Shown here piece by piece: positions 308-60,472 of a stretch of DNA of 64,000 nt. Position 1 is the first letter of the stretch. Each line of letters starts with the position of its first letter. This stretch comes from an uncultured Gammaproteobacteria bacterium. GTDB lineage: Bacteria > Patescibacteriota > Microgenomatia > Woykebacterales > RBG-16-39-9b. The stretch lies in the NCBI GenBank assembly GCA_965231125.1, contig OZ246414.1, forward strand, positions 827,239-891,238, given 5' to 3'. The translations under genes and the position numbers were made by a program. The notes under the pieces are model-generated. The model searched no databases, was not told the DNA's origin, and was given only the letters and a program-made list of their open reading frames with translations.

Positions 308-973
308 ATGTCCGATTTTATTTCAACCCAAAATCCAATAACAATTTTTGTCGCCGTTAGTCTCTTTATTGCTACAATTGCCGCTCTGGTTAGCGTCCAT
401 GAGGCTTCTCACGCTTGGATGGCGAACAAGCTGGGAGACCCAACGGCAAGGTATCAGGGCAGAATCAGCCTTAACCCTCTTGTTCACATTGACCCCTTAG
501 GGACGGTGATACTTCCTCTTATCTTGATAGTCACTAGTGTAGTTACTCACAGTCCGCTTTTTCTATTCGGTTGGGCTAAACCAACCCCTTTCAACCCTTG
601 GAATTTAAAAAACCCACGGCGCGACGCCGCCTTAATTTCCTTCGCCGGCCCAGTCTCCAACTTTATTCTGGCGGCAATATTGGCGGTAGTTTATCGCCTC
701 TTTGGAGGTTTCAACGAACTTTTAGCGAGCTACTTTCAATTTTTGGTGTATCTGTCTTTGGTGCTTGGTATCTTCAACTTAATACCAATTGCGCCTCTTG
801 ATGGGTTTAAAGTCGTCGCGGGTGTACTTCCAAGGGATCTAGCGGCTCGTTGGCAAGAGTTGGAAAGTATTGGCCCATTTTTACTAATCGCCTTAATTTT
901 TCTAGGCGGTCCCCTGATACAGCCGATTATTAGTTTTATTCTCGGTTTCTTTTTGAAAATTTTAATTGGTTAG
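308..973 (+). CDS. Site-2 protease family (peptidase M50) membrane zinc metalloprotease. Start could instead be the ATG at 245.
   Basis: HExxH motif (VHEASHAWMANKLGD) in a polytopic membrane protein. The LNPLxHxDPLG-like segment is typical of the SpoIVFB/S2P family. Confidence 0.65.
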   Translation: MSDFISTQNPITIFVAVSLFIATIAALVSVHEASHAWMANKLGDPTARYQGRISLNPLVHIDPLGTVILPLILIVTSVVTHSPLFLFGWAKPTPFNPWNLKNPRRDAALISFAGPVSNFILAAILAVVYRLFGGFNELLASYFQFLVYLSLVLGIFNLIPIAPLDGFKVVAGVLPRDLAARWQELESIGPFLLIALIFLGGPLIQPIISFILGFFLKILIG

Positions 974-1310: not shown

Positions 1311-2423
1311 TCACAGTGCTGTAAATTCAATTACGAAGGTGTTGGACCCGTCGGGATTTTTAACTGCTCCTGCCCCGACATCAATCTCATCAACTTCCCA
1401 GTTTGAAAGAATAACGTCCATATGTCCTGGACTATTGGTCCAATCGCTAATAGCCTGATCAAATGCAGTACTATCAGAATTCCAATTTCGCTCGATTACC
1501 TCACCCCATCCATTCGTAGTAATTCCACAATCAGTCAACGCTGTCTGCCCTGACCTTCCATCTGGACGAGTATGACTGAAAAGGATATCGGCTTCGTGAG
1601 CTCTGGTTCTTGCCGCTTGAACCATAAGCGGCTTTATAACTATGGTCTGTGAAAGACCTTGAGAACTCCTAGTTTCCTGAACCCATTGGTGAAGTGCGTC
1701 TTGCCAGGAGGCTTCGGTTGCAGTCGCGGCAGTTGAATTTGAGGTAACGGTTCCTTTGTAATAAAGTCGCAAGTGGTCTCCCGACGGAGAATAGACGTAA
1801 AAATCATACGGAGTCGAGGAATTAAGATCTACGAAAGTGTTTGAGGTTCCCGAAAGATTAAAGACCTCGCCGCCAACATTTGTATTTGTACCGGAGTTAG
1901 TTAAAAGAACACTGTAATTCGCTACGCCATTGCATGGCCCGCTTTTAAACGTCCCCTGCTGAAGTTTCGTTTTCGAACAATCCGGCCAGCAAACAACCCA
2001 ACTATAATTACGATTTGGGTAAAGATTCGTTAGGGTTGTGGAAGTACCACTAACCTGTCTAGGTGTACCGGCAACCACACAAAATGTGCCGCAATCATTA
2101 TCAAAAGCAACCACCGCGTAACTAATTCCTGTCCAAGAAAAGCTTACCTTGCCGGTTGAATCCGAAACTGCGTTTCCGGTAGCGTAATAATTATTCGTAC
2201 CGCCACACCCTGGTAAACAAACCTCCCACTTGTAAGAGAGTCCAGCTGGCTGGTTCGAAAGTACATAACTTTTGCTAGTTGTGGTTGTAATAACAAAGGG
2301 GATTTGCGAAGTGGCCGAGCATATAAAGCCGTACTTCTGAACAACCGATAAGACGTCCGCAATTGTTATCATGCCGTCGGCATTCAAATCGTATCTTTTG
2401 GAATAAGATGATTCTCCCTGCAC
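1311..2423 (-). CDS. Secreted protein with an N-terminal dockerin-like Ca-binding module, a Cys-rich middle and a C-terminal CAP/SCP (PR-1-like) domain. The likely true gene is 1311..2897, interrupted by an in-frame TAG (see findings).
   Basis: Dockerin-like repeat YDLNADGMITIADVLSVV. CAP-domain signature at the C-terminus (HTRPDG...GWGEV...SPGHMDVILSNW...VGAGAV). Confidence 0.6.
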   Translation of the reverse strand: MQGESSYSKRYDLNADGMITIADVLSVVQKYGFICSATSQIPFVITTTTSKSYVLSNQPAGLSYKWEVCLPGCGGTNNYYATGNAVSDSTGKVSFSWTGISYAVVAFDNDCGTFCVVAGTPRQVSGTSTTLTNLYPNRNYSWVVCWPDCSKTKLQQGTFKSGPCNGVANYSVLLTNSGTNTNVGGEVFNLSGTSNTFVDLNSSTPYDFYVYSPSGDHLRLYYKGTVTSNSTAATATEASWQDALHQWVQETRSSQGLSQTIVIKPLMVQAARTRAHEADILFSHTRPDGRSGQTALTDCGITTNGWGEVIERNWNSDSTAFDQAISDWTNSPGHMDVILSNWEVDEIDVGAGAVKNPDGSNTFVIEFTAL

Positions 2424-2943: not shown

Positions 2944-3018
2944 TGGCAGGCGCGGAGGGAATCGAACCCACGACCTCTGGTTTTGGAGACCAGCGTTCTA
3001 CCACTGAACTACACGCCT
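2944..3018 (-). tRNA. tRNA-Trp (CCA)
   Basis: Reverse complement folds as a cloverleaf with anticodon loop CUCCAAA. Acceptor stem AGGCGTG/CGCGCCT. The 3' CCA is encoded. Confidence 0.8.
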
Positions 3019-3064: not shown

Positions 3065-3229
3065 CTATTTTGTTTCTTTGTGTTCAGTCACTTTTTTACA
3101 ATGCTTGCAAAACTTCTTAGTGATAAGTCGATCCGGATCGTTAATCTTACTTTTTTCCGTGACGTAGTTTTGGTTTTTGCAAACGGTACATTGTAATGTA
3201 ACTATAATCCTTTTACCTTTTTTAGCCAT
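3065..3229 (-). CDS. rpmG: 50S ribosomal protein L33 (54 aa; below the ORF-track length cutoff).
   Basis: Reverse-strand translation: [54 protein letters not shown]. This shows the L33 C-x-x-C...C-x-x-C zinc ribbon and sits between tRNA-Trp and a tRNA cluster, as in many bacteria. Confidence 0.8.
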
Positions 3230-3302
3230 AGTTTAAACTCCTTTATCAGTGAGCAGAACAAAGTGCTAATTATTGATATATTAATTTATTCAACAATCTA
3301 TC

Positions 3303-3377
3303 TGGAGCCGACGGTGGGAATTGAACCCACGACCTAACCCTTACCAAGGGTTCGCTCTGCCACTGAGCCACGTCGGC
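3303..3377 (-). tRNA. tRNA-Thr (GGT)
   Basis: Cloverleaf with anticodon loop UUGGUAA, T-arm GGTTCAATTCC, and encoded CCA. Confidence 0.8.
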
Positions 3378-3455
3378 AGGTTGAAACTGTGCTCTTAGCC
3401 CGATTAAATCGGGCGCAGCACGCTTTTAGCGGGCTACCACTGAGCCATCCGGGCA
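3378..3455 (-). other. tRNA-like 5' fragment (acceptor plus D-arm GCCCGGATGGCTCAGTGGTAG) followed by a conserved 33-nt core and a hairpin. It is not a foldable tRNA. It sits where tRNA-Gly would be expected.
   Basis: The D-arm sequence matches tRNA consensus. No matching 3' acceptor strand is present. The core CCCGCTAAAAGCGTGCTGCG is shared with the element at 3683-3775. Confidence 0.4.
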
Positions 3456-3541
3456 TGGTGCCGAGGGTAGGGTTCGAACCTACGTAGCCACAAGGGCGCT
3501 TGTTTTACAGACAAGTGCGTTTGACCACTCCGCCACCTCGG
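3456..3541 (-). tRNA. tRNA-Tyr (GTA), long variable arm
   Basis: Anticodon loop CUGUAAA, long variable arm, acceptor GCCGAGG/CCTCGGC, CCA encoded. Confidence 0.8.
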
Positions 3542-3550
3542 CGTGTTGGA

Positions 3551-3607
3551 CTGGAGCCGATCGTCGGATTCGAACCGACAACCTGCTGTTTAGAGCATGC
3601 CGACTCC
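3551..3607 (-). other. tRNA 3'-half fragment (T-arm GTCGGTTCGAATCCGAC plus acceptor 3' strand plus CCA). No D-arm or 5' acceptor is present.
   Basis: At 57 nt it is too short for a tRNA. It ends in ...GATCGGCTCCA and follows tRNA-Thr(TGT) directly. Confidence 0.4.
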
Positions 3608-3682
3608 GTGGAGCCGAGGAAGGGATTCGAACCCTTAACCTGCGGTTTACAAAACCGCTGCTCTACCGTTGAGCCACCTCGG
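3608..3682 (-). tRNA. tRNA-Thr (TGT)
   Basis: Cloverleaf with anticodon loop UUUGUAA, T-arm GGTTCGAATCC, CCA encoded. Confidence 0.75.
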
Positions 3683-3775
3683 CATGCTGCACCCCAACAA
3701 GTCGGGGCTAAAAACCGCTGCTCTTAGACCACAGGTCGCAGCACGCTTTTAGCGGGCTACCACTGAGCTAAGTCG
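3683..3775 (-). other. Second tRNA-like 5' fragment (GCCGACTTAGCTCAGTGGTAG) carrying the same 33-nt core. It ends in a hairpin plus U-run (CCCCGACTTGTTGGGG) just upstream of tRNA-Thr(TGT).
   Basis: It shares the core ...GGTAGCCCGCTAAAAGCGTGCTGCG...CTAAGAGCA with 3378-3455. The 3' part duplicates the D/anticodon-stem sequence of the adjacent tRNA-Thr (AGAGCAGCGGTTTT). Confidence 0.4.
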
Positions 3776-3870
3776 GCAACTGAATGTTTCCAGCTTACCA
3801 AAACCCAGGCATTATATCAAAAACACTCTAAGGCTTCAAGCTTAGTTTCTTTTATCTACTAACCCCATAG

Positions 3871-3898
3871 TTTGACTTGCTCGTTATTTTATGCTATA
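3871..3898 (+). promoter_or_regulatory. Consensus sigma70-type promoter (TTGACT-17-TATACT).
   Basis: Read directly: ttgact tgctcgttattttatgc tatact. Confidence 0.5.
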
Positions 3899-3995
3899 CT
3901 CCATCTCGTCTGCAGTGGACGAAAGGGCCACGGGACAAGGAGGTGGAACAATGCGCGACATCCACGTTTAGAACTGGACGAAGGGCGAGCGCACC

Positions 3996-4208
3996 ATGCC
4001 CATAACCCCTGAGGGAATGGCCGAAGCCATCGAGTTCTTTCTCGACGACGGCTTCAACCTGGCCATCACCCCCACCGATAAGGGGCAAGCGGGTCCTTGG
4101 ATGCAGATCGGACGCGATCGAGAAAGCGGTCGACTTTCGGTCTTCATCTACACAGCCGGAGGCAATCCCGCAGCAATGGCCTCCATTGAGCTGGTTGATT
4201 CCTCATGA
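3996..4208 (+). CDS. Hypothetical 70-aa protein inside a ~300-bp GC-rich island (~58% GC).
   Basis: ORF in a region of anomalous GC. It is preceded by a strong SD (AAGGAGGT) that serves a 6-codon uORF (MRDIHV*). Coding status is uncertain. Confidence 0.3.
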   Translation: MPITPEGMAEAIEFFLDDGFNLAITPTDKGQAGPWMQIGRDRESGRLSVFIYTAGGNPAAMASIELVDSS

Positions 4209-4277
4209 ATTAACCAGCTCCCAAATCCCCTTTACACTATTCCCCTTCTATGCTAGAATCAGGGCCGTTTAAATTTA

Positions 4278-4478
4278 ATGAGACTCATAAAAGGCGTTGT
4301 AAAATATTTCCAACAAGTTCGTCAGGAAACTTTAAAAGTAACCTGGCCGACCCGAGAGCAGACCATTAGGATGACTGCTCTTGTTATAATAGTAAGTGTT
4401 GCCCTTGGCGCCCTTATGGGCGGTCTGGATTACGTTCTTGCTAAAGTTATTAGCGCCGTGTTGCAAAGAACCGTTTAA
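4278..4478 (+). CDS. secE: Preprotein translocase subunit SecE
   Basis: A 66-aa protein with a single C-terminal TM helix, immediately upstream of nusG. The order tRNA-Trp / secE / nusG / rplK / rplA is the conserved arrangement. Confidence 0.8.
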   Translation: MRLIKGVVKYFQQVRQETLKVTWPTREQTIRMTALVIIVSVALGALMGGLDYVLAKVISAVLQRTV

Positions 4479-6689: not shown

Positions 6690-6875
6690 CAACCTGTAGA
6701 ACTTAATTTATACTCCCCTTCGTACCGAAGACAGCTAGCATTTGCATAAGTCTAGCCGAGGACAGCTTAAGTAAAAAGTATAAAGTTAAAAGTAAAAATT
6801 TTTGACTTTTTCATTTTGAATTTTGACTTAAACAGCCTCGCTTCGGTGGGGTTTTTGCGTTTTAAGGAGTAACTA

Positions 6876-13609: not shown

Positions 13610-13862
13610 GCTACTTTACGGCGCCAAGAAGGCGGTATGGTCTCAAAACCTGCCGCCTTCACTCTTTTTAAGATGAGAAAATCGAGTAGCGCACACTTAG
13701 TGTTACGAGCGGGCATTTTGGGCAAGCAAAAGAAGTATGAGATATTTTTATATATTTGGAGGTATTTCAGTTCTTAAACTTGACAAGTTATTTTTTAGTC
13801 TGATATGTTTAGTAAGTACTTTATTACTACTTTAAATAGTTTTAGTATACAAGGATATCCAA

Positions 13863-14063
13863 ATGTCTTTAGGAGACGATTTACCAGAATTAATGACAGT
13901 CAGAGAAGTAGCTACTTTTTTGCGTGTTTCTCCACTGACTATTAAACGTTGGGGGAAAAGAGGAAAATTACCAGCCATTCGAATAAACGCCCGTGGTGAT
14001 CGCAGGTATAAAAAAGAGGCGGTCTTGTGGTTGCTCGGAGAGATGAAACGGGAGGCGGTATGA
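13863..14063 (+). CDS. Stand-alone excisionase/MerR-superfamily helix-turn-helix DNA-binding protein (66 aa).
   Basis: MTVREVATFLRVSPLTIKRWGKRGKLPAIRINARGDRRY matches the excisionase-family HTH pattern. Confidence 0.6.
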   Translation: MSLGDDLPELMTVREVATFLRVSPLTIKRWGKRGKLPAIRINARGDRRYKKEAVLWLLGEMKREAV

Positions 14064-14317
14064 CTTCCAATTGTCTTGAACCCGCCTCTGCGGTTTGTCG
14101 GTATAGAATCCTCCATAACCAAATTCATTAGCTTCGCTAAAGTAATTTGGGTATTCTCGGATTCTGCGCTTCGCACCTCGTGCCAAGCTAAGAAAGGAAA
14201 CTGTTTAACTAATTTAAACGACTTTAATCTCCTTCTTGCGTCCAGCTAAGCTGGACTAAAAAAAGAAGCATTTTAGGTACCCCCTAGACCTCCCATGATA
14301 TAATTCACCATCAACTT

Positions 14318-21712: not shown

Positions 21713-22105
21713 ATGCACAAAACTCACATAAAAGGACTTTTAGGCGAATTAGAATTCTCCTTGTATCTAATTCAAAAGGGTTGGTCCGTATTAAAACCAA
21801 CCAATCAAAATTCAAGGTATGATGTTGTTTTGGAAAAAGATGGTAAGTTTAAAAGACTTCAAATAAAATATTGTACACCAAACAATGGCGTAATAAGACT
21901 TGAGCTTGACAGGCCAAAAAGAAAAACTAGGCCATACGGAAGTAGTGAAATTGATTATATAGCTGCTTATAATTCTAGAGACCATAAGTTTTATTTAATA
22001 CCAATAAGCCACTTTAGAAAGCAAAAAGAAATTTGGCTAAGGATTGATAAACCCAGGAACGGTCAAAACAAAAATATAAGATTTGCCAGTGACTATGAAA
22101 TTTAA
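21713..22105 (+). CDS. Putative PD-(D/E)XK-fold nuclease-like protein (130 aa).
   Basis: GxxGE...D(YDVVL)...(RLQIK) arrangement, reminiscent of restriction-endonuclease-like / YraN-like folds. This is a weak, motif-only call. Confidence 0.3.
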
Positions 22106-23352: not shown

Positions 23353-23988
23353 TTAATACTCGTAAATCTCACCCTCACTAAACCATAAAGTTTCTTCGAA
23401 CTTTGCCTCTTCTTCCGAACCAGAAACGTGGATTAGATTTTCAACTCCTCTTCTTTCAACATTGGCGTAAGCTGCCGAATCGGTCGAAAAATCCCCTCTT
23501 ATCGTTCCCGGGGCGGCTTGCACTGGCATTGTCGGTCCGGCTAGAGAAGTTACGTTTTCAACGGCGTGGCGGCCTTCCAAAAGCATTGCAACCACCGGCC
23601 CACCACCGACATAATGCAGGAGCCAGCTGACGACTAGTCTGCCAAGTTCTTTTGGGTCGCTCGTTCCAAAATCGGCCTTTGCGTCTTTACCAAACTCGGC
23701 ATAAGTTTTGAGGGTTTTATTACCAAGTCTGTCCAAAGTTTCTTCCTTATCAACTTTATAATGCTTCTTAAGAAGCTCTTCGTCCGGCCACACCATTTTC
23801 ATGGCAACAATTTTTAAACCCACGCGCTCAAACCGGTGAATAATTTCACCGGCCACTCCTCTTTTTACTGCATCTGGTTTTAATAAAACAACGGTTCTTT
23901 CCAAGATTAAGCTAATAGTTGTAGCGCCAGCGAAAACTATGCTTAAGCGCAGTACGCGCAGTAGCTGATCTTCGGTAGAAGATATCAA
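23353..23988 (-). CDS. ndk: Nucleoside-diphosphate kinase, with an internal insertion
   Basis: ERTVVLLKPDAV...NLIHVSGS (active-site His region). Confidence 0.75.
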   Translation of the reverse strand: MISSTEDQLLRVLRLSIVFAGATTISLILERTVVLLKPDAVKRGVAGEIIHRFERVGLKIVAMKMVWPDEELLKKHYKVDKEETLDRLGNKTLKTYAEFGKDAKADFGTSDPKELGRLVVSWLLHYVGGGPVVAMLLEGRHAVENVTSLAGPTMPVQAAPGTIRGDFSTDSAAYANVERRGVENLIHVSGSEEEAKFEETLWFSEGEIYEY

Positions 23989-59769: not shown

Positions 59770-59896
59770 CCTCTATTGAGCTAAGTATAATACTTGTGAT
59801 AAAATTGGCGCGAGTTCGTGGGCCTGTGGCGCAATAGACTGCTTCGCATTCTGCGACCACTTTGTGGACTATTGCTAGCGCAGCCCCGTAAAATTT

Positions 59897-59972
59897 GGGC
59901 CCATGGCTCAATTGGTAGAGCGCTTCCATGGCATGGAAGAGGTTGCCGGTTCAAGTCCGGCTGGGTCCACCA
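59897..59972 (+). tRNA. tRNA-Ala (GGC)
   Basis: Acceptor GGGCCCA/TGGGTCC (G3:U70 present). Anticodon loop AUGGCAU. T-arm GGTTCAAGTCC. CCA encoded. Confidence 0.7.
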
Positions 59973-59978
59973 AATTTG

Positions 59979-60019
59979 TACGGGGAGGTTAGGGGTTCGA
60001 GTCCCCTCAGTTCCACCAG
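59979..60019 (+). other. tRNA 3'-half fragment (T-arm AGGGGTTCGAGTCCCCT plus acceptor 3' strand plus CCA) with no 5' half
   Basis: Only 41 nt. No D-arm or anticodon arm upstream. Confidence 0.4.
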
Positions 60020-60167
60020 GCCACTACGTTTCGCAAAGCGAAACTACGCGGCCTGCTCCGCGAAGCTTTAGCGTAGTGGGGTACACTTCGCTCTTAGAGC
60101 TTCGCGTGGCACAGCCAAAGAGGGGCGAGAAGTAAGAAGTGTGCTCCGCAAAAAGTAAATCTTTTTA

Positions 60168-60248: not shown

Positions 60249-60290
60249 ACTAGGTTGAGGAGGTAGGCGGTTCGACCCCACCCCAGCTGC
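60249..60290 (+). other. Partial duplicate of the tRNA-Ala(CGC) 3' portion (ttgaggaggtaggcggttcga...)
   Basis: 21 nt identical to tRNA positions 37-57, then diverging. No acceptor. Confidence 0.4.
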
Positions 60291-60472
60291 ACTGACTCCT
60301 CGAGATTTTAATATATTTATATATCTTTGTTAATAAATTGATATACTCTGTTCTTTAACTCGGAGTGGTTTAGTATATCAATACTAATCAAACTAGAAAT
60401 TTTTATTCCCCTACAGCTTACTAGAGTTTCCGCAGAGAATTTTGTTTTTTTAACTCAATACTATATAATATA

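Follow-up and report, generated by a model that had tools for sequence, protein, structure and literature searches.

A 64-kb stretch of bacterial DNA, referred to here as the window, contains a cluster of tRNA genes in which pieces of tRNA genes lie around and between intact ones. The host lineage belongs to the Patescibacteria (Candidate Phyla Radiation, CPR) and, judged by homologues of ribosomal protein L33, lies near Candidatus Woykebacteria. We propose that these pieces are relics of older tRNA genes that have been superseded by working copies, in a repeated replacement in which DNA entered at the region of the anticodon loop, and we put the probability of this explanation at about 0.6. 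The relics resemble the intact genes for the same isoacceptors in relatives (31 of 34, 39 of 41 and 30 of 31 positions in the comparisons given below), which marks them as remains of replaced genes; each relic type has such a homologue, an adjacent gene with the same anticodon and a patchy presence among relatives. A preliminary description of the cluster, made from the sequence alone, had listed decayed tRNA genes, integration scars at tRNA genes, split or permuted tRNA halves and a conserved leader as possible explanations, of which the first two come closest to what the comparison with relatives indicates.

The tRNA-Thr cluster

Transfer RNA genes were called with ARAGORN and the Rfam tRNA model, and the corresponding loci of relatives (numbered L002–L030; L003 is from Woykebacteria) were found through exact L33 look-ups. 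On the minus strand the order is fragment B (3777..3684), an intact tRNA-Thr(UGU) (3609..3683; Rfam tRNA 75.2 bits), a 57-nt piece (3608..3552), an intact tRNA-Tyr(GUA) (3456..3542), fragment A (3454..3378), an intact tRNA-Thr(GGU) (3303..3377), rpmG (3229..3065) and tRNA-Trp (3018..2944); coordinates and ARAGORN calls bear out the order first described. ARAGORN and Rfam report only the four intact tRNAs at the cluster, and a permissive Rfam scan gave no credible match for A, B or the 57-nt piece. In an independent assembly of this population by the Joint Genome Institute (JGI; L002) the genes and pieces are arranged identically, with one difference in 1001 nt, so the arrangement is not an artefact of assembly; independent assemblies exclude that possibility both for the window population and for L003/L004.

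Fragment B and most of the 57-nt piece are, by their sequences, the two halves of one older Thr(UGU) gene. B opens with nucleotides 1–21 of that gene (GCCGACTTAGCTCAGTGGTAG, 3757..3777, minus strand), which are identical to the start of the intact Thr(UGU) gene of L018. There follow a 34-nt insertion in the D-loop (3723..3756; 65.2 bits with covariance model R1 of the insertion) and the segment AGCAGCGGTTTTT (3710..3722), which supplies the 3′ strand of the D-stem, the 5′ strand of the anticodon stem and the first nucleotides of the loop. With the insertion removed, B agrees with the intact L018 gene at 31 of 34 positions. The preliminary description regarded the whole 57-nt piece as an orphan 3′ half; the perfect T-arm and the CCA end are as reported, but only the last 41 nt (3552..3592, minus strand), from the UAA of the anticodon loop to CCA, are derived from a tRNA, the first 16 nt being flank. 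These 41 nt match the 3′ half of the intact Thr(UGU) gene of L003 at 39 positions, compared with 32 of 41 for the neighbouring intact gene. When B without its insertion, a single added G and the 3′ piece are joined in silico, the product is a 75-nt cloverleaf that ARAGORN calls as tRNA-Thr(tgt). The older Thr(UGU) gene is thus interrupted at its anticodon by a 118-nt segment holding a complete, different and working Thr(UGU) gene.

The flanks of the nested gene carry further traces. The left flank (3684..3709, minus strand) includes a 6-bp hairpin (CCCCGA/TTGGGG) and AGCATGCC; the right flank (CGGAGTCGGCATGCTC, 16 nt, 3593..3608) holds a complement of the latter, GGCATGCT. The right flank also includes AGTCGGC, the perfect complement of GCCGACT in the 5′ strand of B, and the two are paired in the minimum-free-energy fold. 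The same AGTCGGC forms the 3′ acceptor strand of the Thr(UGU) allele of L015 and L018, which suggests that this locus has passed through more than one round of replacement. The first 12 nt of the second part of B (AGCAGCGGTTTT) recur identically in the nested intact gene; this is the duplication of part of the adjacent tRNA-Thr that had been noticed earlier.

Fragment A is the 5′ half of a Thr(GGU) gene, ending at the first nucleotide of the anticodon loop. It starts 1 nt past Tyr with nucleotides 1–21 (GCCCGGATGGCTCAGTGGTAG, 3434..3454, minus strand), continues with a 40-nt copy of the D-loop insertion (3394..3433; R1, 73.7 bits) and closes with AGCACAGTTT, comprising the 3′ strand of the D-stem, the 5′ strand of the anticodon stem and the first loop nucleotide, and a 6-nt linker (together 3378..3393). 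From the anticodon loop onwards, the older gene has given way to the intact Thr(GGU) gene, which is complete and represents the other allele type (GCCGACG..CGTCGGC), the one found as the broken outer gene in L015. In L024, whose L33 is ~85% identical to that of the window, an intact Thr(GGU) gene (GCCCAGATAGTTCAGTGGAAGAACGCAGTCTT...) begins 1 nt past Tyr, exactly where A starts. The intact allele corresponding to A (GCCCAGATAGTTCAGTGG..) is present in L024 and L015, in L024 at the same position. L003 has a homologue of A in the same place and, once its insertion is removed, 30 of 31 aligned positions are those of the intact Thr(GGU) gene of L015. Both A and B do open with a tRNA-like 5′ acceptor strand and D-arm, as first described, and the statement that A lacks a 3′ acceptor strand also holds: A has no 3′ half, a search of the 64 kb for its 3′ partner (TCCGGGCNCCA) gave only chance-level matches, and neither ARAGORN nor Rfam calls a tRNA there.

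By analogy with clusters of the thrU-tyrU-glyT-thrT type, A had been placed in the position of glyT, which would make it a decayed tRNA-Gly gene. The D-arm TAGTTCAGTGGTAG of the L003 copy of A resembles that of many bacterial tRNA-Gly genes, and this likeness speaks for a glycine origin. The same 21 nt, however, begin the intact Thr(GGU) genes of L015 and L024, and the anticodon-stem remnant of A matches Thr(GGU) too. In L003, L006, L012, L015 and L024, Tyr is followed by Thr(GGU) or its relic and in none by Gly. A complete cloverleaf with an NCC anticodon and homology to tRNA-Gly were both sought at A and neither was found. The intact gene at the position of A in L024, together with the identities in L003 and L015, therefore makes A half of a Thr(GGU) gene and not of tRNA-Gly; the orthologous loci refute the glycine origin, to which we assign practically no weight.

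A promoter-like site (TTGAAG, a 17-nt spacer and a TG-extended TATAAT) is predicted ~30 nt upstream of B (3811..3839, minus strand), and its TTTTTGATATAAT string is also found upstream of the L003 cluster. It is the sole such site on the minus strand down to 2933, which would put relics and tRNAs on one transcript.

Nests at tRNA-Ala and in relatives

A search of the window with a T-loop pattern led to a tRNA-Ala pair 56 kb from the Thr cluster. Here an intact tRNA-Ala(GGC) gene (59897..59972, plus strand; called by ARAGORN and Rfam) stands between the two parts of an Ala-type relic. The 5′ half (59820..59896, plus strand) has a 40-nt D-loop insertion (59836..59875; R1, 42.8 bits) with GCATTCTGCGACC in common with the Thr insertion of L015. 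The 3′ part (59973..60018, plus strand) consists of a flank that pairs with the left flank, followed by GGGG, a perfect T-arm and CAGTTCC-ACCA, and its acceptor strand pairs with the 5′ half at 6 of 7 positions, including G3:U70. Further along, a decayed duplicate of the 3′ half of tRNA-Ala(CGC) lies 12 nt past that gene (60256..60291, plus strand), identical over 20 nt and diverged thereafter. The 149 nt upstream of tRNA-Ala(CGC) (60019..60167, plus strand) are rich in hairpins, among them a perfect 9-bp stem (CGCGAAGCU/AGCUUCGCG), and include a GGCCTG resembling the Ala acceptor strand and a D-loop-like string (AGTGGGGTA). Here, too, a decayed 5′ relic may be present, in this case with an insertion of another kind.

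In L015 the outer 5′ half of a Thr(GGU) gene (GCCGACATGGCTCAGTGGTAG, insertion, AGCGCGCTTTA) leads straight into an intact Thr(GGU) gene of the other type, and the 3′ part of the outer gene adjoins the inner one, ends in TGTCGGCTCCA and has a further insertion in its T-loop. The alleles are reciprocal: of the two Thr(GGU) types, L015 has in broken form the one that the window and L003 have intact, and in intact form the one that is broken in them. L015 also has an intact tRNA-Tyr gene nested within an older Tyr gene. Between its Tyr and Thr nests, at 353..393, is a tRNA remnant (ATAGTTTAGTGGAAAACTAGCTCCA) in which a D-arm is fused to a 3′ end; this is a third layer of debris in a contig of 1 kb. 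L003 shares the relics of the window, and they are absent from L024, L018, L012 and L006.

In L018 (202..553) the order is Thr(GGU)-Tyr-Thr(UGU)-rpmG, with the two Thr genes in the reverse of their order in the window, so the cluster has been rearranged as well as nested. A conserved element of the spacer (AAAGAATTTTGAAGAGGAGG..., a hairpin, ...AGTCCAGCCCGACG) occurs in L003 (2581..2689), L005 (1..98), L015 (27..169) and L024 (1..111). It precedes tRNA-Tyr in L003, L015 and L024, and Thr(GGU) in L005. In the window the 3′ relic of Thr(UGU) takes the place of this element, of which GTCCAACAC alone is left.

The D-loop insertion

The core shared by A and B, reported in the preliminary description, is real. 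The 20-mer CCCGCTAAAAGCGTGCTGCG occurs exactly twice in the 64 kb, where none is expected; counting the preceding D-arm the identity runs to 32 nt, and CTAAGAGCA is common again after a hairpin that differs. The core makes up most of a 34–40-nt insertion with two hairpins between D-loop nucleotides 21 and 22 of disabled copies. We found six copies (A, B and Ala in the window, A and B in L003, and one in L015), all of them in the D-loops of disabled genes and all placed between A21 of the D-loop and G22 of the D-stem. In order, they consist of a closing helix (UAG/CUA), hairpin 1 (loop UAAA(A) or UUC), a single-stranded (U)CUGCG, hairpin 2 and CUA(A)G, and hairpin 2 varies among them in both sequence and length. 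Copy B, for example, has CCCGC-UAAAA-GCGUG as hairpin 1, then CUGCG, ACC-UGU-GGU as hairpin 2, and CUAAG; copy A agrees with it in hairpin 1, CUGCG and the final CUAAG and differs in hairpin 2 (CCCGAU-UUA-AUCGGG).

The alignment of the six insertions, checked by hand, places standard pairs in 91.6% of pair cells, compared with 21–39% when the partners are slid by 1–3 columns. Six pairs change on both sides, a count reached by 2 of 500 shuffles. For the percentage paired, the covariation score and the number of cells with changes on both sides, the observed value was higher than in any of the 500 shuffles. The number of further pair types was not above that in shuffles (185/500), and the six sequences, partly from the same genomes, are too few for a firm test of covariation. 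Model R1 found no further strong copy in the window or in 17 loci. Weaker relatives (18–19 bits) lie directly before tRNA-Trp in the L025–L030 group, and the T-loop insertion of L015 gives a weak match on the reverse strand (13.7 bits). That insertion, in the outer Thr(GGU) gene at L015 556..591, has 7-nt inverted ends (AGATCGC/GTGATCT). If the reverse-strand match is real, the insertion family would fit in either orientation, as an element at the level of DNA would.

The 3′ two-thirds of the insertion (GUGCUGCG, hairpin, CUAAG) also form the end of a motif of ~90 nt (CCAAAUU...AAUUUGGGUAnUCUCG..UCUGCG, hairpin, CUAAG), which is found in the window at 14110..14199 (plus strand) and in L003 at 2328..2411 and 3169..3261. 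In L003 the two copies are in the leader of the cluster and the leader of tRNA-Trp. In the window the motif lies within a non-tRNA intergenic region poor in open reading frames (ORFs; 13610..14317), with a promoter-like site at 13780..13809. No Rfam family matches this motif, which may be an undescribed structured RNA.

Searches for the insertion in the window and its relatives produced a six-copy family in the window, L003 and L015, whilst those of large DNA collections produced chance hits only. Scans of the locus and the whole window against Rfam at permissive thresholds gave noise below the gathering scores, with no family and no ribozyme. The exact 20-mer is absent from the metagenome contig collection. 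Its single hit among genome contigs, in an ABC-F coding region of Nanopelagicaceae with no tRNA nearby, was taken as chance, and so was the single metagenome hit of a degenerate pattern with 21 specified bases, which falls in a high-GC coding region. The degenerate pattern had no match in viral contigs, and blastn of fragment A against phage records returned nothing meaningful. Three other identities for the insertion were considered and rejected: a promoter, as the spacing of the conserved blocks ranges over 9–19 nt; a bulge-helix-bulge intron, as no suitable helix could be drawn; and a CRISPR repeat, the likeness of CUGCG-hairpin-CUAAGA to the end of a type I-F repeat being taken as a coincidence, with no array present.

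The insertion could be a member of a small family of structured insertion sequences of this lineage, spreading between D-arms through insertion or gene conversion. The exact identity of A and B within the window, which includes an apparently compensatory change in the D-stem relative to the L003 copy, is most readily explained by gene conversion, the two copies lying 320 bp from each other. The earlier argument that a shared core speaks against random decay is thus half right, since the identity looks like conversion and the relics are little better conserved than neutral sites. Between the window and L003, relic A is 81% and relic B 75% identical, beside 79–89% for the intact tRNAs, 71% for rpmG third positions in codons of the same amino acid and 68% for the Thr(GGU)-rpmG spacer; linkers adjoining the relics are unalignable. 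The relics are therefore barely above synonymous-site identity. They may be too young to have decayed, and we make no claim of purifying selection.

Origin of the nests

In the proposed replacement, mobile or other incoming DNA would enter the anticodon-loop region of an essential single-copy tRNA gene, and its entry would be tolerated solely because it supplies a working copy of the same tRNA; the remainder of the incoming DNA would be lost later. Genomes of less than 1 Mb usually hold one gene per tRNA, and with one gene per tRNA only those insertions that bring a replacement would survive. Either an integrase-type or a homing-endonuclease-type process would fit this scheme. The relics would be transcribed as leader and spacer RNA from the single predicted promoter, and discarded when RNase P and 3′ processing free the intact tRNAs.

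A possible agent is encoded in the window. A free-standing, full-length gene for a PD-(D/E)XK endonuclease of the I-Ssp6803I family (130 amino acids; 21713..22105, plus strand; PF11645, E 1.9e-26; PDB 2OST, E 6.6e-8) ends at the first base of tRNA-Pro(CGG), its stop codon abutting the tRNA gene, and is divergent from tRNA-Arg(CCU). It has 22 metagenome relatives with 52–75% identity, and none was confirmed in viral contigs. The case for this nuclease as the cause of breaks in tRNA genes is circumstantial and unproven, and its involvement is no more than possible.

Several points weigh against the replacement model. The nuclease gene is 18 kb away from the Thr cluster, and the tRNA-Pro gene beside it has no relic halves. 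Neither within the Thr and Ala nests nor next to them is there a gene for an integrase, a transposase or an endonuclease, and the flanks of the inner genes span only 0–27 nt, so the mobile element is something that we infer and have not seen. Pfam scans of 26 ORFs of the window, including those that flank the Thr, Arg/Pro and Ala tRNA loci, revealed no recombinase; the 20 ORFs scanned across the window besides the nuclease gene are housekeeping genes or without assignment, and include no recombinase or transposase. Sequence shared exactly by relic and intact gene, which might be an att core, amounts to 12 nt for B and 20 nt for the Ala(CGC) duplicate, and A has none. The model leaves unexplained why nearly every disabled Thr or Ala copy carries the D-loop insertion, and why the outer helices are so well preserved. 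A related module is present in tRNA-Trp leaders and in one intergenic region without tRNAs, which hints at a function of its own. The insertion is confined to three lineages, and both large DNA collections gave nothing more.

A more specific version of nested replacement would make the nests the footprints of homing cassettes: an endonuclease would cut the DNA of the anticodon loop, a donor with the nuclease gene and a cleavage-resistant tRNA would be copied in between the outer halves, which would be the homology arms, and the nuclease would then be lost. The insertion points are all in the anticodon loop, apparently at about positions 32–36, and the anticodon stem is where the inner allele is least like the outer one. 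The states found in relatives are reciprocal (G1 inside G2; elsewhere G2 inside G1), the outer helices are as well preserved as recently copied arms should be, and a full-length gene of the I-Ssp6803I family abuts tRNA-Pro. Precedent is offered by SegB of phage T4, a free-standing homing endonuclease that cuts tRNA-gene DNA and spreads the tRNA region (PMC2330249), and the gene for I-Ssp6803I itself lies in the intron of a tRNA-fMet gene (PMC1995217). Such enzymes have conserved tRNA-gene DNA as their target and bring about the replacement of tRNA gene regions. Unlike those systems, the nests have neither a nuclease gene nor a remnant of one, and function would be restored by a replacement gene and not by splicing; a group I intron core was sought, no Rfam intron match was obtained at E <= 10, and the inserts are too short. 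Reciprocal invasion would, moreover, need two specificities, and we regard the homing version as doubtful. An equally doubtful alternative is that the D-arm with its two-hairpin module is a functional, cis-acting RNA leader selected upstream of certain tRNAs, where it might guide or insulate the folding or processing of the pre-tRNA, for instance by preventing mispairing between a relic and the nested tRNA or by binding a processing protein. The conserved leader of the preliminary description is possible in this form, for the insertion module, which in relatives does recur in tRNA leaders: several of them have a related version (GAGUGCUGCG, hairpin, CUAAG) that directly abuts tRNA-Trp, and this version is also the 3′ end of the ~90-nt motif. 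Both hairpins have survived substitutions in both of their strands, and the module points in the direction of tRNA transcription in every case, whichever genome strand it is on. A and B are, moreover, conserved in L003 and the window next to linkers that are not, and the module is inside the predicted primary transcript. Against a leader, anything from 0 to 47 nt separates the module from the tRNA downstream, it is missing in close relatives with the same tRNAs (L024, L018 and L012), its conservation is close to the near-neutral level, and constraint on the DNA could equally explain hairpins for which the sequences are too few to test covariation firmly.

That the pieces are functional split, permuted or multi-intron tRNAs, to be joined or spliced after transcription, we consider very improbable. 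It is true that the outer halves of Thr(UGU), Ala and the L015 Thr(GGU) keep their acceptor, D and T helices, and that the sites of insertion, namely D-loop and anticodon loop and also the T-loop in L015, are positions of introns in archaea (PMC4090602), where multi-intron, split and permuted tRNAs have insertions at just these sites (PMC4090602, PMC3978253). Here, every outer gene lacks an anticodon and none can be reconstituted: Thr(tgt) needs one added G, the outer genes of Ala and of L015 are without an anticodon loop, and A is without a partner in the 64 kb. With introns of up to 400 nt allowed, ARAGORN found no outer tRNA gene, whether or not the D-loop insertions were removed, and at a threshold of 80% it gave only spurious overlapping calls. 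No bulge-helix-bulge motif was seen by inspection, the host is bacterial, and in every case the relics are accompanied by an intact gene for the same anticodon.

The nests share features with several described systems. Integrating elements leave fragments of tRNA genes behind (PMC9897764; van der Gulik et al. 2023), and such att-site fragments likewise consist of a partial sequence beside an intact gene for the same tRNA, broken within the anticodon loop; the duplicated 3′ half of Ala(CGC) has the look of a typical example. Unlike att-site fragments, whole genes are nested here, 5′ halves survive as well, the D-loop carries an insertion, and neither an element body nor an integrase is present. 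In Caldiarchaeum subterraneum a 5′ fragment of one tRNA-Thr(GGU) allele stands upstream of a complete second allele, just as A does; the arrangement varies within the population and was attributed by the authors to a mobile element integrating at tRNA genes (Sugahara et al. 2012, PMC3293823). The archaeal gap is 1.8 kb long and encodes a recombinase, and the introns there can be spliced, in contrast to a gap of 6–27 nt in a bacterium with no indication of splicing. The insertion itself is similar to repetitive extragenic palindromes (REP) and miniature inverted-repeat transposable elements (MITE) in its 34–40 nt, its two hairpins, the short (7-nt) inverted ends that only some copies have (in copy A, TAGCCCG...CGGGCTA) and what may be a duplicated TAG at either end. 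It differs from them in having three copies in 64 kb, all in tRNA D-loops, with no transposase seen and with weak evidence for both orientations.

Fragments beside tRNA genes are as such ordinary. What is unusual, as far as we found in the literature searched, is the geometry of a complete gene in an anticodon loop (Thr, Ala and Tyr), the reciprocal alleles and the recurrent D-loop insertion. Nested replacement in at least four tRNA genes of two related genomes implies that essential single-copy tRNA genes appear to turn over often. The relics look like tRNA halves or tRNA-like RNAs, and annotators should take them neither for split tRNAs nor for a missing tRNA-Gly. If a nuclease or an integrase drives the process, selfish DNA could occupy essential RNA genes without splicing. 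More speculatively, the nests could be the product of an undescribed kind of selfish insertion that carries a replacement tRNA gene and no self-splicing intron, settles in the resident gene at its anticodon loop, perhaps through an enzyme of the I-Ssp6803I type, and leaves tRNA-within-tRNA nests behind; the two-hairpin insertion of the D-loop (and T-loop) might be part of that system or belong to a new class of small insertions or intron-like elements specific to tRNAs, but we think such a scenario unlikely as a whole. The insertion is in any case a compact, recurrent structure and is directly testable.

Some minor features of the window were also recorded. The genes secE, nusG, rplK, rplA, rplJ and rplL diverge from the tRNA cluster, starting at 4278. 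Between the promoter of the cluster and secE is a block of 60% G+C (3890..4210) in a background of ~42% G+C, with a 70-amino-acid ORF (3996..4208, plus strand) that is covered by a JGI gene call and has no Pfam match. Just upstream of rplJ, at 6707..6822 (plus strand), a match to the L10 leader (RF00557) falls below the threshold (37.9 bits; gathering score 44; E 0.014) and is probably a genuine, divergent L10 leader. At 23353..23988 (minus strand), an ORF of 211 amino acids for nucleoside diphosphate kinase matches the Pfam NDK family in two stretches, the better of which covers residues 123–208, suggesting an N-terminal extension or an internal insertion.

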